Below are positions 6,245 through 13,488 of a stretch of 64,000 bases of DNA, piece by piece. The stretch comes from Euzebyales bacterium. Lineage in GTDB: Bacteria; Actinomycetota; Nitriliruptoria; Euzebyales; JAHELV01. Both the position numbers and the translations under genes were made by a program. The stretch lies in NCBI GenBank assembly GCA_036374135.1, contig DASUUK010000068.1:20628-84627 (forward strand). Reading direction: 5' to 3'. Positions within the stretch are counted from its first letter, which is position 1. Every line of letters begins with the position of its first letter. Under the pieces are notes generated by a model. That model worked only from the letters and a program-made list of their open reading frames with translations, was not told where the DNA came from and did not search any database.

Positions 6245-6571
6245 TCAGGCGCTCTTGGCGTCGGTCGATGCGGCCGTGTCCGACGACGTGCTCTTCGCGC
6301 TGTCGGCCGTCGAGCTCGACGAGTCCGACGAGCCGGATCCGTCACCGTCCGACGACCGCGACGACCCGCTCGTCGAGCCGCTGCGCGACCGCTCGTTGCG
6401 GGTGTCGGTGACGTAGTAGCCCGAACCCTTGAAGATGATCCCAGCGGCGCTGAAGACCTTGCGCAACTGCCCTCCGCAGTGCTGGCAGGTCTGCAGCGGG
6501 TCGTCACTGAACGACTGCACGACCTCGAGGTGCCGTCCGCAGTCGCGGCACGCGTACTCGTACGTTGGCAT
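6245..6571 (-). CDS. FmdB family zinc-ribbon protein
   Basis: MPTYEYAC..C...C..CGG.LRKVFS..GIIFKGSGYY.TD signature followed by a Ser-rich tail. Confidence 0.92.
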   Translation of the reverse strand: MPTYEYACRDCGRHLEVVQSFSDDPLQTCQHCGGQLRKVFSAAGIIFKGSGYYVTDTRNERSRSGSTSGSSRSSDGDGSGSSDSSSSTADSAKSTSSDTAASTDAKSA

Positions 6572-6759
6572 GGTTGCTGCTCCCGGCGTTGAAACGGGTG
6601 TGACCGGCCCGACCGGTCCACCGGGCCCGGGCACGCGGGGGTGGCCGCGGCCGGGGCCGACCGGGGTTCGGCGGCGCACCCGGCCGTGCGGGACTGTCAC
6701 GTCCGCGCGCCAGTATGCCGAGTTGGTGCACGCCGCGGGCGCACGGGCCCCGGCAGAGG

Positions 6760-7350
6760 TCACGTCACGACCACGCCCTCCTCGGTGACGACCATGTCGA
6801 CCGGCACGTCACGGTCGTCACGCGGCACGCGGTCGACGATCTGCGTGGCGAAGGCGACGCCGATGACGGGGGTCTCCGGCCGCAGCCGCAGCAGCAGCCC
6901 GTCGTAGAACCCACCCCCGTAGCCGAGCCGGCCTCCCGCGCGGTCGAACGCGACGCCCGGAGCGACGACCACGTCCAGCCGGTCCACCCGGGCGGGGCGG
7001 CGGCCACGCCGGACGGGCTCGCGGATGCCCATCCGCCCCGGCACGAGATCGGCGTCGAGATCCGTCACCCGCATCATCTCGAGCCACGGCGGCGACATCC
7101 GGGCGATGTAGGGCAGGAACACCCCGACGCCCAGGGCGATGCGGTCGACCAGGAAGGGGTCGAGCGCGACCTCCGACCCGAAGGACGCGAACGCCAGCAG
7201 GGTCCTGGCCGTGCTGACCTCGGGGAGCTGCGACAGACGTGCACGCACCGCCGCGCTGGCGCGCGCGTGCACGTCGTGTGCCAGGGCGTCGCGGCGCGCG
7301 AGCAGCTCCCGCCGCACCCGGGCCTTCTGGTCGCGCACCAGCTCCACCAC
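6760..7350 (-). CDS. ygfA: 5-formyltetrahydrofolate cyclo-ligase
   Basis: K..VRRELLARR, SFGSEV, DVVVAPGVAFDRAGGRLGYGGGFYD motifs. Start is estimated. Confidence 0.92.
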   Translation of the reverse strand: MVELVRDQKARVRRELLARRDALAHDVHARASAAVRARLSQLPEVSTARTLLAFASFGSEVALDPFLVDRIALGVGVFLPYIARMSPPWLEMMRVTDLDADLVPGRMGIREPVRRGRRPARVDRLDVVVAPGVAFDRAGGRLGYGGGFYDGLLLRLRPETPVIGVAFATQIVDRVPRDDRDVPVDMVVTEEGVVVT

Positions 7351-7558
7351 CCGTCGGCAGGCCCCGTCGGGGACCCGTGAGCGTGCCTTCGCCGCACCGC
7401 AGGGAGGGTCCGGCCGGCCACCTGAACGGCGCCGGGGCAGCGTAGCCCGCGCGCCGTCCGGGCACCCGCGTTCCGGCGGGCGGGTCGACCCCGTAGACTT
7501 CCGTCCAGCCACATCCGACCGCAGCTGATCCCGGTCGGAAGTCGACGAGGCGAGAGGC

Positions 7559-8440
7559 ATGGCGTTGCGAGCGCGCAAGGCGGTCATCCCGGCCGCGGGT
7601 CTGGGCACCCGGTTCCTGCCTGCCACGAAGTCACAGCCCAAAGAGATGCTGCCACTCGTGGACAAGCCCGCGGTGCAGTACACCGTCGAGGAGGCGGTGA
7701 CGGCGGGCATCGACGACCTGTTGGTGGTCACGGGTCGTGGCACGCGGTCGTTGGAGGATCACTTCGATCGGGACGAGCAGCTCGAGGCCAGCCTGGCGGC
7801 CGACGGCCGTGACGATCTGCTCGCGGCGATCCGCCAGCCCGCGATGCTGGCGCGCCTCCACTACGTGCGACAGGGCCGGCCGCTGGGCCTTGGTCACGCC
7901 GTGGGATGTGCCCGAAACCACGTCGGTGACGAGCCGTTCGCCGTGCTGCTGGGTGACGACGTCCTCGGCGACGGTGGGCAGTTGCTGCGGCGGATGACCG
8001 AGCTCAACTCCGTGACCGAACGCACGGTGCTCGCCGTCACGGAGTTCGACGACGACCAGTTGCACAAGTACGGCGTGATCGCGGGTGAGCCCGATCCGAG
8101 CGACCCCGACGTCTATCACGTCACCGACATGGTCGAGAAGCCCGGGCCGACCAGCGCGCCCTCCAACCTGTGCATCATCGGCAGGTACGTGCTGACACCC
8201 GACATCTTCGATCAGATCGACGCGCTGCACCCGGGACAGGGTGGTGAGATCCAGCTCACCGATGCGATGCGGGCGCAAGCGCTCGAGAAGCCGATCCGGG
8301 CGATCCGATACACGGGTCCACGCTTCGATCTGGGGAGCAAGGCCGACTGGCTGCGGGCGACCGTGCGCCTGGCGACCGAGCGTGCTGATCTGGGTCCTGA
8401 GTTCCGGGCCTTCCTGCGTGAGGTGGTGCAGTCGTGGTGA
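7559..8440 (+). CDS. galU: UTP--glucose-1-phosphate uridylyltransferase
   Basis: KAVIPAAGLGTRFLPATKSQPKEMLP, PLGLGHAV, MVEKP, GEIQLTDA motifs. Confidence 0.96.
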   Translation: MALRARKAVIPAAGLGTRFLPATKSQPKEMLPLVDKPAVQYTVEEAVTAGIDDLLVVTGRGTRSLEDHFDRDEQLEASLAADGRDDLLAAIRQPAMLARLHYVRQGRPLGLGHAVGCARNHVGDEPFAVLLGDDVLGDGGQLLRRMTELNSVTERTVLAVTEFDDDQLHKYGVIAGEPDPSDPDVYHVTDMVEKPGPTSAPSNLCIIGRYVLTPDIFDQIDALHPGQGGEIQLTDAMRAQALEKPIRAIRYTGPRFDLGSKADWLRATVRLATERADLGPEFRAFLREVVQSW

Positions 8441-9759
8441 GCCAACCATCCGCCGACCGACCTGACGACGACGTGCACGACGCACCGCCCGACCAGCATG
8501 GCGGTGCCCAAGACGAGGTCAGCCACCACGACCACGGTCCGCCCGCGTCCGAGCTGGTTCCGCTGTCGGAGTACCTGCAGGGCATCATCGACGCGGTCTC
8601 TCCGCTGCCGCCGATCCAGCTGTCGCTGCTGGATGCGTCAGGCTGCGCGCTGGCCGCCGACGTCGTCGCGCACACCGACGTCCCACCGTTCGACAACTCG
8701 GCGATGGACGGCTACGCCGTGGTCGCCGACGCCGCGGACGGGTGGCTGCCCGTCGTCGGCGAGGTCGCGGCCGGCGACGACGAGCCGATGCCCGCCGAGC
8801 CCGGCACCGCCGTCGGGGTGATGACCGGTGCCGTGATGCCACCGGGTGCGGACGCGGTCGTGCCGGTCGAGCAGGTCGAGCGCGATGGCGACCGGGTCCG
8901 GGTGACGTCGCCGCCCGCGCACGGTGCCCACATCCGTCGCGCCGGCGAGTCGGTGCGCGCCGGCGAGACGATCCTGGTCACCGGCACCGTGCTCGACGCC
9001 GCGAGCGTCGGCATGCTCGCCGCGTTGGGTCACTCGTACGTCTCGGTCTACCCGCAGCCGCGCGTGGTCGTGGTGTCGACCGGCGAGGAGCTCGCCGACC
9101 CCGGGACCGAGCGGTCAGCCGGGGCGATCTACGATGCGAACAGCTACGTGCTGACCGTGCTGGCGCGTGACACCGGCGCGCAGACGCTGCGGCGCATGAT
9201 CGCCTCGGACGACAAGGCCGACCTGCGTGAGACGATCGAGGAACTGCTGCCCCACGCGGACGTGCTCGTGACGACCGGCGGCGTCAGCGCCGGCCGCTAC
9301 GACATGGTCAAGGTGGTCCTCGCCGAGCTCGGTGACGTGCAGTTCCGCAAGGTCGGCATGCGGCCGGGCATGCCGCAGGCGTTCGGCTTCATCGAGGCGG
9401 ACCCCGACCGCTACATCCCGTGCTTCGGTCTGCCGGGCAACCCCGTCAGCGCGTACGTCAGCTTCGAGGTCTTCGTCCGCCCGACCATCCGTCGGCTGCA
9501 GGGCCGCCGCGACCTCAGCCGGCCGCGTATCAGCGCGGCGCTCGAGGCCCCGTTGGACTCGGTCGCAGACAAGGTGGAGTTCACCCGCGTCACGCTGCGA
9601 CGGCGGGACGGGGAGTGGCAGGCGCGGCCGACCGGCGCGCAGGGCAGCGGCATCCTGCGCTCGCTGGTCGATGCGGACGGCCTCGCCGAGGTGCCGGCCG
9701 ACCGGGACCGCCTGGAGATCGGCGAGCGGGTCGTCGTGCACCTGCTGCGCAGCGTGTGA
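8437..9759 (+). CDS. moeA: Molybdopterin molybdotransferase MoeA / gephyrin-like Glp
   Basis: PPFDNSAMDGYAV, MTGAVMP.GADAVVP.E, STGEEL, TTGGVSAG, GLPGNPVSA, QGSG motifs; GTGA overlap with the galU stop. Confidence 0.95.
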   Translation: MSQPSADRPDDDVHDAPPDQHGGAQDEVSHHDHGPPASELVPLSEYLQGIIDAVSPLPPIQLSLLDASGCALAADVVAHTDVPPFDNSAMDGYAVVADAADGWLPVVGEVAAGDDEPMPAEPGTAVGVMTGAVMPPGADAVVPVEQVERDGDRVRVTSPPAHGAHIRRAGESVRAGETILVTGTVLDAASVGMLAALGHSYVSVYPQPRVVVVSTGEELADPGTERSAGAIYDANSYVLTVLARDTGAQTLRRMIASDDKADLRETIEELLPHADVLVTTGGVSAGRYDMVKVVLAELGDVQFRKVGMRPGMPQAFGFIEADPDRYIPCFGLPGNPVSAYVSFEVFVRPTIRRLQGRRDLSRPRISAALEAPLDSVADKVEFTRVTLRRRDGEWQARPTGAQGSGILRSLVDADGLAEVPADRDRLEIGERVVVHLLRSV

Positions 9760-9763
9760 CGCT

Positions 9764-10258
9764 GTGACCGATGACCGGCTGACCCACCTCGACGCGCGCG
9801 GTCACGCACGCATGGTGGATGTCGGCGACAAGGCACCGTCCGTCCGTGAGGCCACCGCGAGTGCCGAGGTCGTGTTGCGCGCGGCCACCGCGGAGCAGCT
9901 CGCGGCGGGCAGTCTGCCCAAGGGTGACGCGCTGGCCGTGGCCCGGGTGGCCGGCATCATGGCCGCGAAGCGCACCCCGGAGCTGATCCCGCTGTGCCAC
10001 ACCGTCGCGCTGGCGGGCGTCGAGGTCGATGTCGTCGTCCACCACGATCCGCCCCGAGCCGAGATCCGCACCACGGTCCGCGCCGCCGACCGCACCGGTG
10101 TCGAGATGGAGGCACTGGTCGCGGCCAGCACCGCCGCACTCGCGCTGTACGACATGATCAAGGCGATCGACCGGGGCGCCGTGGTGCGCCACGTGCGGCT
10201 CGAGCACAAGTCCGGCGGCGTGCGTGGCGAGTACCGGCGGGGTGGCGACGATGGCTGA
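9764..10258 (+). CDS. moaC: Cyclic pyranopterin monophosphate synthase MoaC
   Basis: LTHLD..G.ARMVDVG.K, GDALAVARVAGIMAAKRT.ELIPLCH, TGVEMEAL, LYDMIKA motifs. Confidence 0.95.
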   Translation: MTDDRLTHLDARGHARMVDVGDKAPSVREATASAEVVLRAATAEQLAAGSLPKGDALAVARVAGIMAAKRTPELIPLCHTVALAGVEVDVVVHHDPPRAEIRTTVRAADRTGVEMEALVAASTAALALYDMIKAIDRGAVVRHVRLEHKSGGVRGEYRRGGDDG

Positions 10259-10739
10259 GAAACCGCGACGGGCGACGGTGCTCACCGTCTCGACGCGCGC
10301 CGCCGCCGGTGTCTACGACGACGAGGCAGGTCCGCTGCTCGCCGAGCAGCTGCGCTCGGCGGGGTTCACCGTCAATCCCGTCGTCGTCGTGCCGGACGGC
10401 CGCGACGTCGTCGCCGACGCGCTGCGGACCGCACTGCCGGACGCCGACGTGATCGTGACGACCGGCGGCACGGGCCTGCACCCGCGGGACCGCACGCCCG
10501 AGGCGACCAGCGACGTCATCGAGCGCACCGTCGACGGCATCGCGGAGGCGATGCGTGCGGCCGCGCTGCGCATCACGCCGATGGGCATGTTGTCCCGCGC
10601 CATCGCGGGCGTCGCGCAGGACACGTTGATCATCAACCTGCCTGGATCGCCCAAGGGGGCGACCGAGAACCTGTCGGTCGTCCTGCGTGTGCTCGGTCAC
10701 GCCGTCGATCAGCTGCGCGGCGGCGATCACCCCCGCTGA
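10251..10739 (+). CDS. mog: MogA/MoaB family molybdopterin adenylyltransferase
   Basis: LTVS, VVPD, TTGGTG..PRD.TPEAT, SRAIAG, INLPGSPKG motifs. Confidence 0.9.
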   Translation: MAEKPRRATVLTVSTRAAAGVYDDEAGPLLAEQLRSAGFTVNPVVVVPDGRDVVADALRTALPDADVIVTTGGTGLHPRDRTPEATSDVIERTVDGIAEAMRAAALRITPMGMLSRAIAGVAQDTLIINLPGSPKGATENLSVVLRVLGHAVDQLRGGDHPR

Positions 10740-10864
10740 AGCGCCGGCGCCGCGGGGCCGGATCACGGCGTGTGTGCCCGGCATGAGCGAGGATGAGGCC
10801 CAGTCGTCGGCGGTGCGCCGGACATCCGCCGGGAAAAATCACTTCGTTGGTAGTCTGCGCCGCG

Positions 10865-11425
10865 ATGAGCTTCGTCGTCGTCGGACTGCTGGTCGCCCTG
10901 TGGACCTGGGTGCTGCTGCCCGGCCTGCTGCGCAACCGACGTGACGCCTCGACGCAGGAGCTGGGTACCGACGTCGATGGCGACGGTGACGCCCTGCCCC
11001 GGTCCGCTTCCGACCGGCGCGACGGCGACGGAGCCGGCCGCCGGATCCTCGTCCTGAGCGATCCCGAGAAGATCGTCGCCGCACAGCCGCGCAGCCGCGC
11101 CGAGCTGCGCCGACGTGCCGTGCTCGCCCGCGGCGGCTTCGCGCTGGTCGCCGCGGTCGTGGCGGGGCTTGCGCTCGGCGGCCCGTGGTGGGTGCCCGCC
11201 GCTGTCATCGGCGTGCCGTACACCCTGTACGTCGGTTTGGCCGTGCGGCTCGAACGACGCCTCGCCGAGCAGCGCGAGACCCTGCACGACATCGCGGAGG
11301 AACGCGCGCGACGACAAGCGCCGCAACCCACCGTTGCCGATCCCGACGCGATCGAGCTGGTCGTGGGCGACGCGTCGGGCATCATCGTCACGGGCTGGCA
11401 GCGGGGCCGCTCCACCGATTCGTGA
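10865..11425 (+). CDS. GlpR/SepX-like membrane protein (putative gephyrin-like receptor)
   Basis: N-terminal TM ending W..VLLP.LLR, a disordered linker, an RRR motif, two further TM helices and a coiled-coil-like tail; located between the moeA cluster and tRNA-Ala, as for actinobacterial glpR/sepX. Confidence 0.6.
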   Translation: MSFVVVGLLVALWTWVLLPGLLRNRRDASTQELGTDVDGDGDALPRSASDRRDGDGAGRRILVLSDPEKIVAAQPRSRAELRRRAVLARGGFALVAAVVAGLALGGPWWVPAAVIGVPYTLYVGLAVRLERRLAEQRETLHDIAEERARRQAPQPTVADPDAIELVVGDASGIIVTGWQRGRSTDS

Positions 11426-11452
11426 CCCCACGGGCATCACCGAGGAGGACGC

Positions 11453-12106
11453 GTGGCACAGCTCGACGACATCGGCGAGCGCGCACGGACTGAGCTCGAG
11501 ACCCTGCACCGGGCGCGTGAGGACGCGTACGCGGCGTCGCGCCGCGTCATCCGTTCTGCGGCAAACGCGATCCGCGCGGTGCATCGCTCCGAGGGGGCGA
11601 CGGCGCGCGCACTGCTCGACGAGGCGACCGACTCGCTCGACGTCGTACGGGGCGCCTCACGTGAGCGGCCACAGCTGACCGGCGCCGGCTTCGTCCTCGA
11701 CGCCCAGAAGGAGTACGCCGAAGCCCGGCTGGTCTATGGACTGCTCGTCGCCGCGTCCGACGACCTGCCCGGCCCCGACGAGCTCGACATCGACACGGCG
11801 GCGTGGCTCAACGGGCTGGCCGAGACCGTTGGCGAGCTGCGTCGACGGATGCTCGACCTCTTGCGCGCGGGCGACCACGACGGGGCCAGCGCCGCGCTCG
11901 CCGCGATGGAGGACATCATCGCGGTGCTGGTCACGATCGACTTCCCGGACGGCGTGACCGGCGGTCTGCGGCGCTCGACCGATGTCGCGCGGTCGATCAC
12001 CGAACGCAGCCGCGGCGACCTGACGACGGCGCTGCAGCTCGATCGAGTACATCGTGCACTCGCCGCCGCTGACCTCGACGGACGGGTCGGGAGCGCGGAC
12101 GGCTGA
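11453..12106 (+). CDS. Translin/TRAX-family protein
   Basis: All-helical pattern; REDAY..SR.VIR..A.AI..VH, QKEYAEA, GLAETVGELRR and LRR..DVAR...ER motifs resemble archaeal translin/TRAX; strong RBS GAGGAGG before the GTG. Confidence 0.8.
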   Translation: MAQLDDIGERARTELETLHRAREDAYAASRRVIRSAANAIRAVHRSEGATARALLDEATDSLDVVRGASRERPQLTGAGFVLDAQKEYAEARLVYGLLVAASDDLPGPDELDIDTAAWLNGLAETVGELRRRMLDLLRAGDHDGASAALAAMEDIIAVLVTIDFPDGVTGGLRRSTDVARSITERSRGDLTTALQLDRVHRALAAADLDGRVGSADG

Positions 12107-12107
12107 G

Positions 12108-12126
12108 GTCGTCGTCCAACGACGAC
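12108..12126 (+). terminator. Hairpin immediately after the translin-like gene
   Basis: GTCGTCGT-CCA-ACGACGAC, an 8-bp perfect stem one base after the stop codon; no U-tract. Confidence 0.4.
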
Positions 12127-12164
12127 ACCTGTCCTCCGCGTGGTCGTCGACGTGTGCCGTCGAG

Positions 12165-12173
12165 TGCTAGCAT
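12165..12173 (+). promoter_or_regulatory. Extended -10 promoter element for tRNA-Ala
   Basis: TGCTAGCAT (TGnTAnnnT) ends 10 nt upstream of the tRNA 5' end. Confidence 0.55.
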
Positions 12174-12183
12174 CGCGTGCCGC

Positions 12184-12256
12184 GGGGCTGTAGCTCAGTT
12201 GGTAGAGCGCCTCGGTCGCATCGAGGAGGCCAGGGGTTCGATTCCCCTCAGCTCCA
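12184..12256 (+). tRNA. tRNA-Ala(CGC), CCA not encoded
   Basis: Acceptor GGGGCTG/CAGCTCC with G3-U70; anticodon stem CCTCG/CGAGG with CGC at 12217-12219; T-loop TTCGATT; followed by CCT. Confidence 0.97.
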
Positions 12257-12271
12257 CCTCACCCCGTTCTG

Positions 12272-12301
12272 AACCCCGGAGCCATGCCGAGGCCGGGGGT
12301 T
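12272..12301 (+). terminator. GC-rich hairpin downstream of tRNA-Ala
   Basis: AACCCCGG...CCGGGGGTT inverted repeat followed by TT. Confidence 0.5.
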
Positions 12302-12648
12302 TGCTGCGTCCGAGGTCCGATGCGTGGTCGCAACATGCACCAAATTGCCACGAATGCGACCGCAGTGCGGCGTTGTCCACGTCTTGACACGGAATGCGCA
12401 GGTCTTGTTGACACGTGCCGCCGCGGATGCGTATGTCTCGTGCCAGGCGCCATGGCACGTGCCGGGGTGAGGGTGGTGAGCCGGCCATTGCGACCGCGAC
12501 CCATGACAGAGCGCTGGTTTCTGCCAGGCCGACATCATCGAGGTCCACACACTCGACTCGACCGGCGGACTGGCCTACGCAGAGCTCGACCGCGAGGACC
12601 CGCTGCGGGACGTGGCGATGCAGTCATCCTTCCTGCAGGCGTCGTTGT

Positions 12649-13488
12649 TCACGTCGGTCGTCGCCCCGGACGCGCCGTGACGACATGGGTCTCGTTGTGG
12701 AACACGAGGCCCGTGTCGTCCACGTGCGCTGCCAACGCGTCCTCGCACGCCGCGACGAGTGCGCCGAGGCGTACATCGTCGAGCGCGGCGAGTGGTCCGG
12801 CCAACGGTGAGCTCGCTGCCTCGCGACGTACGAACTCCGCGACCGAGGGGAACCGCTCCTCGCCGACTGCGATGCGCACGACGACATCGGTCAGGCCGGC
12901 CTCGTCCGCCGCCGCCCGCAGCGCTCCCGCGTCCCCGAACGCGAAGGGCGAGGCCATCATCCGCGCCGCCGCGTCACCTGCGTACTGGCCGAGCAGCCGC
13001 GAGAACACGGCGTACACCGGGTTGTGGGCCAACGGGCGCAGAACGCTGAACGCGATCGTCCCGTCCCGTGTCGCGACGCGGCGGATCTCACGGAGCACCG
13101 CGACCGGGTCGGGGAAGAACTGCACGGCCTCCTCGCACAGCACGACGTCGAACGTGTCGTCGTCGAACGGCAGCGCACCGGCGTCGGCGAGGCGCCAGTC
13201 GATGTCGGACGTCACGTCGGCCGCCGCGGCCGATGCGGCGGCGAGCATGTCGGGGTTGATGTCAACGCCCGTTATCGACCCGGTCGGGCCCACCCGTCCG
13301 CCTGCGGCACGAGCGACGACCCCGGTGCCGCAGGCAACGTCGAGCACGCGGTCGCCCGGGCGCACGTCGGCGATGGCGACGAGCCGACGTGCCATGGCGT
13401 CGAAGATCGCCGGAACCAGATACCGCTCGTAGGCGTCCGCCGCGTTGCCCTGCAGTTGCCAGCCGTCGCCCGTCATCATGTTCCGCAT
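12649..13488 (-). CDS. Class I SAM-dependent methyltransferase (UbiE-like)
   Basis: VLDVACGTG, GVDINPDML, ADAGALPF.D.TFDVV motifs; GGAG RBS 8 nt before the ATG at 13488. Confidence 0.9.
   Translation of the reverse strand: MRNMMTGDGWQLQGNAADAYERYLVPAIFDAMARRLVAIADVRPGDRVLDVACGTGVVARAAGGRVGPTGSITGVDINPDMLAAASAAAADVTSDIDWRLADAGALPFDDDTFDVVLCEEAVQFFPDPVAVLREIRRVATRDGTIAFSVLRPLAHNPVYAVFSRLLGQYAGDAAARMMASPFAFGDAGALRAAADEAGLTDVVVRIAVGEERFPSVAEFVRREAASSPLAGPLAALDDVRLGALVAACEDALAAHVDDTGLVFHNETHVVTARPGRRPT

Follow-up and report, generated by a model that had tools for sequence, protein, structure and literature searches.

What is a translin-superfamily gene doing in an actinobacterium, directly upstream of a tRNA gene, and does that position say anything about what its product does? 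The question is posed by a 64,000-nucleotide (nt) stretch of forward-strand DNA from a Euzebyales bacterium (assembly GCA_036374135.1, contig DASUUK010000068.1, positions 20,628-84,627), referred to here in its full length as the window. Within it, a gene for a 217-residue protein resembling TRAX, the catalytic partner of translin in the C3PO nuclease, is followed by a gene for tRNA-Ala(CGC). A sequence-only reading of this DNA had proposed a translin/TRAX nuclease that was inserted at the locus and might serve tRNA maturation or turnover. The analysis described here places the protein securely among the TRAX-type members of the translin superfamily and leads to a different view of its history and surroundings: it is probably a bacterial TRAX subunit forming a homo-oligomeric, C3PO-like two-metal nuclease, encoded by an old and often lost gene whose adjacency to the tRNA is incidental. 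The gene and its ribosome-binding site are as follows.

11453..12106, forward strand: TRAX-type translin-superfamily gene (open reading frame with GTG start, 217 amino acids and TGA stop)
11442..11449, forward strand: Shine-Dalgarno-like sequence GAGGAGGA, read from the sequence, 3 nt 5' of the GTG

A TRAX-type protein by sequence and fold

When the single protein sequence is searched with phmmer against the sequences in the PDB, the best match is AfTrax from Archaeoglobus fulgidus (3ZC0/3ZC1; E=2.6e-18, residues 9-201), followed by Nanoarchaeum NEQ131, the subunit of NeC3PO (E=2e-5). A profile built from 74 homologues extends the same relationship to AfTrax at 3e-36, NeC3PO at 1e-14, Drosophila Trax at 3e-4 and human TRAX at 2e-3, and did not reach the translin chains in the PDB. 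The AlphaFold2 model, built on the homologue alignment, consists of helices only (predicted local distance difference test score 96.7, predicted template-modelling score 0.90) and has the all-alpha, seven-helix translin fold, with best target-normalised template-modelling (TM) scores of 0.88-0.90. The first 13 Foldseek matches in the PDB are all chains of AfC3PO or NeC3PO, with target-normalised TM scores of 0.78-0.90, most of them at least 0.85, and root-mean-square deviations (rmsd) of 1.7-3.7 A; the eukaryotic C3PO and translin structures rank after them. The proposed homology to TRAX/translin is thus confirmed by the AfTrax match, the family profile and the fold comparison. The plainer elements of the sequence-only reading also stand, since open reading frame, sequence, ARAGORN and structural model agree on a helical protein of 217 residues with a ribosome-binding site, the motifs KEYAE (residues 86-90) and GLAETVGE (residues 121-128), and a tRNA-Ala 77 nt away that carries no encoded CCA.

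Database names for this family point elsewhere. The window protein matches the NCBIfam model NF011160 at 4e-66, under the cut-off, and the PRK14562 series to which it belongs (NF011156-NF011161) is named 'haloacid dehalogenase superfamily protein', a name shared by some homologues in GenBank. Close homologues are called 'translin' in JGI and 'hypothetical protein' or 'haloacid dehalogenase' in GenBank. Membership of the haloacid dehalogenase superfamily, which is defined by a Rossmann-like alpha/beta core and a DxD nucleophile, can be rejected: the model contains helices alone, and its structural matches are all C3PO/translin. The name is a legacy misnomer, and it is propagating misannotation.

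Several observations indicate that the gene is genuine and correctly delimited. Its GTG start at 11453 is supported by an N-terminus that fits the MxxLxxI consensus of the 74 homologues. Ratios of nonsynonymous to synonymous substitution rates (dN/dS) against relatives lie between 0.20 and 0.38, and the gene is therefore real, functional and under purifying selection. The locus also recurs in several soil and rhizosphere metagenome assemblies that are independent of one another, and is therefore no assembly artefact; a search of RNA-seq runs for the locus returned matches only among soil and rhizosphere DNA metagenomes. The window genome holds a single copy of the family (one match).

An invariant acidic tetrad

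What sets TRAX apart from translin is an acidic tetrad (Glu, Glu, Asp, Glu). In NeC3PO, Glu82, Glu85, Asp117 and Glu121 coordinate two cations, and cleavage is strongly reduced by the substitutions E82Q, D117N and E121Q; AfTrax D114 is the equivalent of Asp117, and the human TRAX tetrad comprises Glu123, Glu126, Asp193 and Glu197 (PMC5100593). The corresponding positions in the window are listed below.

11711..11722, forward strand: ExxE motif, with the codons of E87 (11711-11713) and E90 (11720-11722), aligned to NeTrax Glu82 and Glu85, the first two metal ligands
11822..11836, forward strand: ExxGE motif, with the codons of E124 (11822-11824), at the position of AfTrax D114 and NeTrax D117 (the M2 metal site), and of E128 (11834-11836), the counterpart of NeTrax Glu121

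HMMER alignments pair E87, E90, E124 and E128 with NeTrax E82, E85, D117 and E121, so that an earlier by-eye alignment of ExxE and ExxGE to the TRAX catalytic residues, including glutamate in place of aspartate, proves correct. All four carboxylates are kept, the third as glutamate. These residues are invariant in 92 of 92 bacterial homologues from three phyla, and the Asp-to-Glu exchange at position 124 is therefore a trait of every bacterial homologue examined and not a quirk of the window gene. A set of basic residues is likewise invariant among bacterial homologues (R22, R30, R41, H44, R45, K86, R130, R131, R138, R174, R180 and R187). The invariant tetrad strongly suggests that the window protein is an active nuclease.

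The same residues invite another interpretation, namely that the protein is a non-catalytic, translin-like RNA or DNA binder or chaperone that has kept the fold and a basic surface while the Asp-to-Glu exchange disabled its second metal site. Eukaryotic translin is itself non-catalytic, the many invariant Arg, Lys and His residues suggest strong nucleic-acid binding, and the aspartate replaced here is the M2-site residue of all characterised TRAX proteins. However, glutamate retains the carboxylate, the profile matches TRAX and not translin chains, and, if there were no metal site, it would be difficult to account for four carboxylates that are invariant across 92 sequences diverged to ~45-50% identity with the window protein. 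A purely binding role is accordingly improbable, and a two-metal nuclease is the better account of the tetrad.

Distribution and inheritance

Translin-superfamily genes of Chloroflexi had already been reported (Gupta, Kale and Kumar 2012, J Mol Evol 75:155, as cited in PMC5100593 and PMC5424206). A literature search turned up nothing on actinobacterial translin or TRAX, the bacterial family appearing otherwise only in mentions of Chloroflexi. The family is in fact large, with more than 3,500 homologues at E<=1e-3 in a large protein collection. Genome records place the close relatives in Nitriliruptorales, Egibacteraceae, many unclassified Actinomycetota, Armatimonadota and Chloroflexota, the last including Dehalococcoidia, Anaerolineae, Ktedonobacteria and Thermomicrobia. 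TRAX is carried by 19 of 41 close relatives of the window genome, by 165 of 401 Actinomycetota genomes (41%, or 122 of 248 genera) drawn evenly from the window's phylum, and by 112 of 201 sampled Chloroflexota genomes (56%); the Chloroflexota carriers include genomes as small as 1.4-1.5 Mb. A control set of 14 well-known genomes gave matches in three archaea only. The description of translin/TRAX as mainly eukaryotic and archaeal, on which the sequence-only reading had relied, is outdated in view of these frequencies.

A maximum-likelihood tree of 119 bacterial sequences, with AfTrax as the single archaeal sequence, gathers the bacterial proteins in a tight group at the tip of a very long branch to AfTrax. 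The window protein pairs with a congener (100*), and both fall in a cluster from their own order that has weak support (Shimodaira-Hasegawa-like approximate likelihood ratio test, SH-aLRT, 89, unstarred), and within that order the tree follows taxonomy. Since a root placed on one long outgroup is unreliable, the deeper branching order is not interpreted. Recent horizontal transfer from archaea, raised as a possible origin, is unlikely, as the bacterial sequences cluster tightly far from AfTrax and track taxonomy within the window's order.

Actinomycetota TRAX proteins encoded outside the moeA/glp block described below cluster with those of Chloroflexota and Armatimonadota (SH-aLRT 97*) and not with the Actinomycetota proteins of the block. 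Their loci (L113, L118-L120, L122, L126, L127, L130, L131, L133 and L081) lie in other genomic contexts. This grouping reflects either deep-branching classes or an old transfer between phyla.

The Actinomycetota loci with TRAX in this chromosomal position include those whose proteins are only ~45-55% identical to the window protein. Because of this shared slot, and because the tree tracks taxonomy within the order, ancient presence with vertical inheritance and many losses is favoured as the probable history, and replaces the idea of an insertion at a glpR-tRNA-Ala locus. A tRNA hotspot as the site of insertion was considered and rejected on further grounds: TRAX precedes the tRNA and is not flanked by mobile elements, diverged Actinomycetota families share the slot, and relatives without TRAX display a clean absence with no remnant.

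A conserved gene block that ends in tRNA-Ala(CGC)

The surroundings of the gene comprise the following features, those of the block being assigned by Pfam and by synteny in relatives unless otherwise stated.

6245-6760, reverse strand: Zn_ribbon_8 (FmdB-like) gene, divergent from galU
6760-7740, reverse strand: 5-formyltetrahydrofolate cyclo-ligase gene, next to the Zn_ribbon_8 gene and divergent from galU
7559-8440, forward strand: galU
8434-9759, forward strand: moeA/glp
about 9764-10258, forward strand: moaC
10224-10739, forward strand: mog
10793..11425, forward strand: SepX/GlpR-like membrane protein gene, the conserved upstream neighbour (NCBIfam SepX_GlpR models)
12107..12129, forward strand: hairpin directly 3' of the TRAX stop, predicted by folding (dG ~ -12 kcal/mol, no U-tract)
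12165..12173, forward strand: extended -10-like tRNA promoter element TGCTAGCAT, from spacer comparison, 10 nt before the tRNA 5' end
12184..12258, forward strand: tRNA-Ala(CGC), found by ARAGORN, with discriminator A at 12256

The product of 10793-11425 matches the SepX_GlpR models at E values of 6e-7 to 3e-6, far under their curated cut-offs, and has no Pfam match; the protein is a diverged SepX/GlpR family member, encoded at the conserved position after moeA/glp, moaC and mog. The DNA after the discriminator A reads CCT, so the CCA end of the tRNA is not encoded. The spacer between TRAX and the tRNA spans 12107-12183. A consensus promoter and terminator scan of 10600-12700 found nothing, with no canonical terminator after TRAX, and the hairpin at 12107-12129 is not kept in the spacers of relatives.

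The order galU-moeA/glp-moaC-(mog)-(sepX/glpR-like)-TRAX-tRNA-Ala(CGC), with TRAX as the terminal gene, recurs in most Actinomycetota loci. In a first set of 32 informative Actinomycetota loci, 22 have tRNA-Ala(CGC) on the TRAX strand no more than 100 nt downstream, and in 8 more the downstream distance is 0.5-2.2 kb. A phylum-wide set, in which 32 loci were picked to cover the maximum number of family codes, has the tRNA adjacent in 10 and within 2.8 kb in 8 more, while 13 loci are without a tRNA-Ala nearby. Outside the block the association disappears. Among Actinomycetota loci in other contexts there is one tRNA-Asp and one tRNA-Gly. At ~45 TRAX loci of Chloroflexota and Armatimonadota, tRNA-Ala is absent and a tRNA of any kind lies within 200 nt in only two (tRNA-Arg, opposite strand), which is roughly the chance expectation.

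Relatives without TRAX are particularly informative in this respect. Nine were examined, three of them from the same genus, and in all eight whose contigs are long enough to be informative, tRNA-Ala(CGC) comes straight after a complete block; in G001 and G004, for instance, ~56 nt and 118 nt separate it from the glpR-like gene. Comparison of the spacers reveals an extended -10-like element (TGCTAGCAT, TGCTACCAT or CGCTATCAT) 5' of the tRNA in 17 of 18, with or without TRAX, the remaining spacer (L107) carrying GCTAGGCT instead. The element, a GCTA[GCT][CG]AT-like motif, is located 10-45 nt 5' of tRNA-Ala(CGC) across the compared loci (the window, L002-L012 and L102-L110); it was missed by the generic promoter scan and emerged only from the comparison across relatives. 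Elements of the TGCTAGCAT type would constitute the tRNA's own promoter, and the operon structure of TRAX is likewise predicted from sequence conservation.

Two loci show additional tRNA copies. In L110 (G009:C1), ~100 nt 5' of the tRNA-Ala(CGC) at 2577, GCTACCAT is followed by a degenerate partial tRNA copy (GGGGCTGTAGCTCAATTGGTAGAGTGCCTCGGTCGCC...), within 130 nt upstream, which looks like a decayed tandem duplicate. In L037, two intact copies of tRNA-Ala(CGC) lie 0.6 and 3.3 kb downstream of TRAX.

Could TRAX nevertheless be dedicated to maturing or turning over the neighbouring tRNA-Ala(CGC), or to pre-tRNA leader fragments in general, and be kept beside the tRNA for that reason? The frequent adjacency in both Actinomycetota sets speaks for such a role, and in some relatives the distance from the TRAX stop to the tRNA promoter is too short to hold a terminator, making an mRNA-tRNA read-through transcript plausible. 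There are also precedents in other domains of life: the C3PO of the fungus Neurospora degrades 5' pre-tRNA fragments (Li 2012, as cited in PMC5100593), and archaeal TRAX shares an operon with SepRS (PMC5424206). Yet the same tRNA follows the glp/sepX block in every informative relative without TRAX, a conserved -10 element of the tRNA's own accompanies it in loci of both kinds, the adjacency represents one ancestral arrangement and not a series of independent events, and the tRNA is missing from the Chloroflexota and Armatimonadota loci and from the vicinity of 13 of 32 phylum-wide Actinomycetota loci. A dedicated tRNA role is therefore quite unlikely. The linkage noticed from one sequence does recur in Actinomycetota, but it is confined to a single syntenic block, does not depend on TRAX and is absent in Chloroflexota, so that the adjacency gives no ground for the tRNA maturation or turnover role drawn from it. 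tRNA-Ala(CGC) is, as far as gene order and promoter motifs tell, a separate transcription unit anchored at the block end independently of TRAX. Because the neighbourhood is conserved, the tRNA stays when TRAX is gone and it has an apparent promoter of its own, the adjacency is best understood as inherited gene order; because the tRNA is anchored independently, the arrangement would carry no specific functional information.

More improbable still is a role in the Glp/SepX(GlpR) divisome module, in which TRAX would act with, or regulate, the cell-division or molybdenum-cofactor (Moco) genes and be kept at the end of their operon for that reason. It does follow the sepX/glpR-like gene closely on the same strand (by 27 nt in the window and by a median of ~8-14 nt from its upstream neighbour in relatives), in an order conserved across diverged Actinomycetota families. 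However, many close relatives have the complete operon but lack TRAX, these neighbours do not accompany TRAX in Chloroflexota, in Armatimonadota or at 11-13 of the 32 phylum-wide Actinomycetota loci, and the TRAX fold gives no hint of a divisome or Moco link.

An independent context in Chloroflexota

At many Chloroflexota loci TRAX is the last gene of a tight, co-directional string composed of rnhB (RNase HII), yraN (UPF0102, endonuclease-like), one or two Zn_ribbon_8 genes, sometimes thiE, and TRAX. The string is found at L024, L043, L060, L074, L077, L079, L033, L042 and L046, with the partners 0.4-2.7 kb 5' of TRAX. Among Chloroflexota loci, 27 have the zinc-ribbon gene, 15 have yraN and 13 have rnhB. 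The string points to a functional link of bacterial TRAX with the processing of RNA:DNA hybrids or of nucleic acids, and this setting in nucleic-acid metabolism, independent of the actinobacterial block, fits a nuclease role.

The Zn_ribbon_8 gene of the window lies ~5 kb 5' of TRAX on the opposite strand and belongs to the same family as the immediate upstream neighbour of TRAX in Chloroflexota. It may be left over from an older linkage, or its presence here may be coincidental.

Proposed activity and its significance

By analogy with Archaeoglobus and Nanoarchaeum, the window protein would assemble into a homo-oligomeric, probably octameric, hollow C3PO-like particle; a homo-oligomer is expected because the protein is the sole family member in its genome. 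E87, E90, E124 and E128 would face the cavity and bind two Mg2+ or Mn2+ ions, and short single- or double-stranded RNA, possibly DNA as well, would be cleaved endonucleolytically inside the shell. Such a protein would scavenge or process fragments of nucleic acid as a housekeeping function, though one dispensable enough for the gene to disappear frequently.

A number of points weigh against this proposal. The Pfam Translin model PF01997 gives no match to the window protein, even at E<=1, and for this reason homology is argued here through PDB sequences, the family profile and the fold. The same model matches 48 of 74 close homologues at E<=1, at best 5e-8; it is weakly sensitive to the bacterial TRAX clade. 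The M2 ligand is glutamate here and aspartate in all characterised TRAX proteins, and at that position only D117N is known to cripple NeC3PO (PMC5100593). The literature search turned up no biochemical study of any bacterial TRAX or translin member. Finally, the -10 element begins only 7-14 nt past the TRAX stop in some relatives and the only candidate terminator in the window is the U-less hairpin at 12107-12129, for which reasons read-through transcripts from TRAX into the tRNA are plausible.

The proposal can be taken a step further. Bacterial C3PO-like particles could be a widespread and overlooked RNase with which Terrabacteria, as a housekeeping task, dispose of short RNA by-products, perhaps together with RNase HII and YraN, a partnership hinted at by the rnhB-yraN-Zn ribbon-TRAX string of Chloroflexota. 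The by-products may include tRNA leaders released by RNase P (also from operon read-through into tRNA-Ala), RNA primers and R-loop remnants. Such a function would echo a genetic interaction between translin and RNase H2 reported for fission yeast (PMC9246224). At this breadth the idea is speculative and rather doubtful.

About one in two of the Actinomycetota and Chloroflexota genomes sampled carries bacterial TRAX, often under the GenBank label 'hypothetical' or the incorrect one 'haloacid dehalogenase'. As an intact predicted single-subunit nuclease of the C3PO type, it provides a testable candidate for the turnover of RNA fragments in both phyla, and the bacterial clade offers a natural Asp-to-Glu variant of the second metal site. 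Its adjacency to a tRNA, on the other hand, is inherited synteny and should not be taken as functional linkage.

Comparison with known systems

The characterised relatives include the TRAX subunits of eukaryotic C3PO (human 3PJA; Drosophila 3AXJ/3RIU), which share the superfamily, the fold and a corresponding tetrad with the window protein. Sequence identity to the eukaryotic chains is only 14-20% for TRAX and 11-15% for translin, and eukaryotic C3PO differs in being a hetero-octamer with a separate, non-catalytic translin subunit. Its roles related to RNA interference cannot apply in bacteria.

Much closer are the translin-superfamily proteins of Chloroflexi, which belong to the same bacterial clade, are 43-57% identical to the window protein and have the E/E/E/E tetrad throughout. 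Their genomic context, the rnhB-yraN-Zn ribbon string, is different, and unlike them the Actinomycetota members, with their fixed slot between sepX/glpR and tRNA-Ala(CGC), were not found in the literature search.

Among proteins of known structure, AfTrax/AfC3PO (3ZC0, 3ZC1) is the nearest in sequence, with ~32-34% identity over the full length, the same seven-helix fold (target-normalised TM 0.88) and the same ExxE...xxxGE positions. Like the window protein, AfTrax is the sole family member of its genome. The window protein differs from it in being bacterial, in having E124 in place of the catalytic Asp114 and in extending ~15-20 residues further at the C-terminus. NeTrax/NeC3PO (5JR9, 5JRC, 5JRE) is only ~20% identical and has Asp117 where the window protein has glutamate, yet the fold is the same (target-normalised TM 0.88-0.90, rmsd 1.7 A) and the four cation ligands align, and it is NeC3PO that serves as the template for the two-metal mechanism proposed here.

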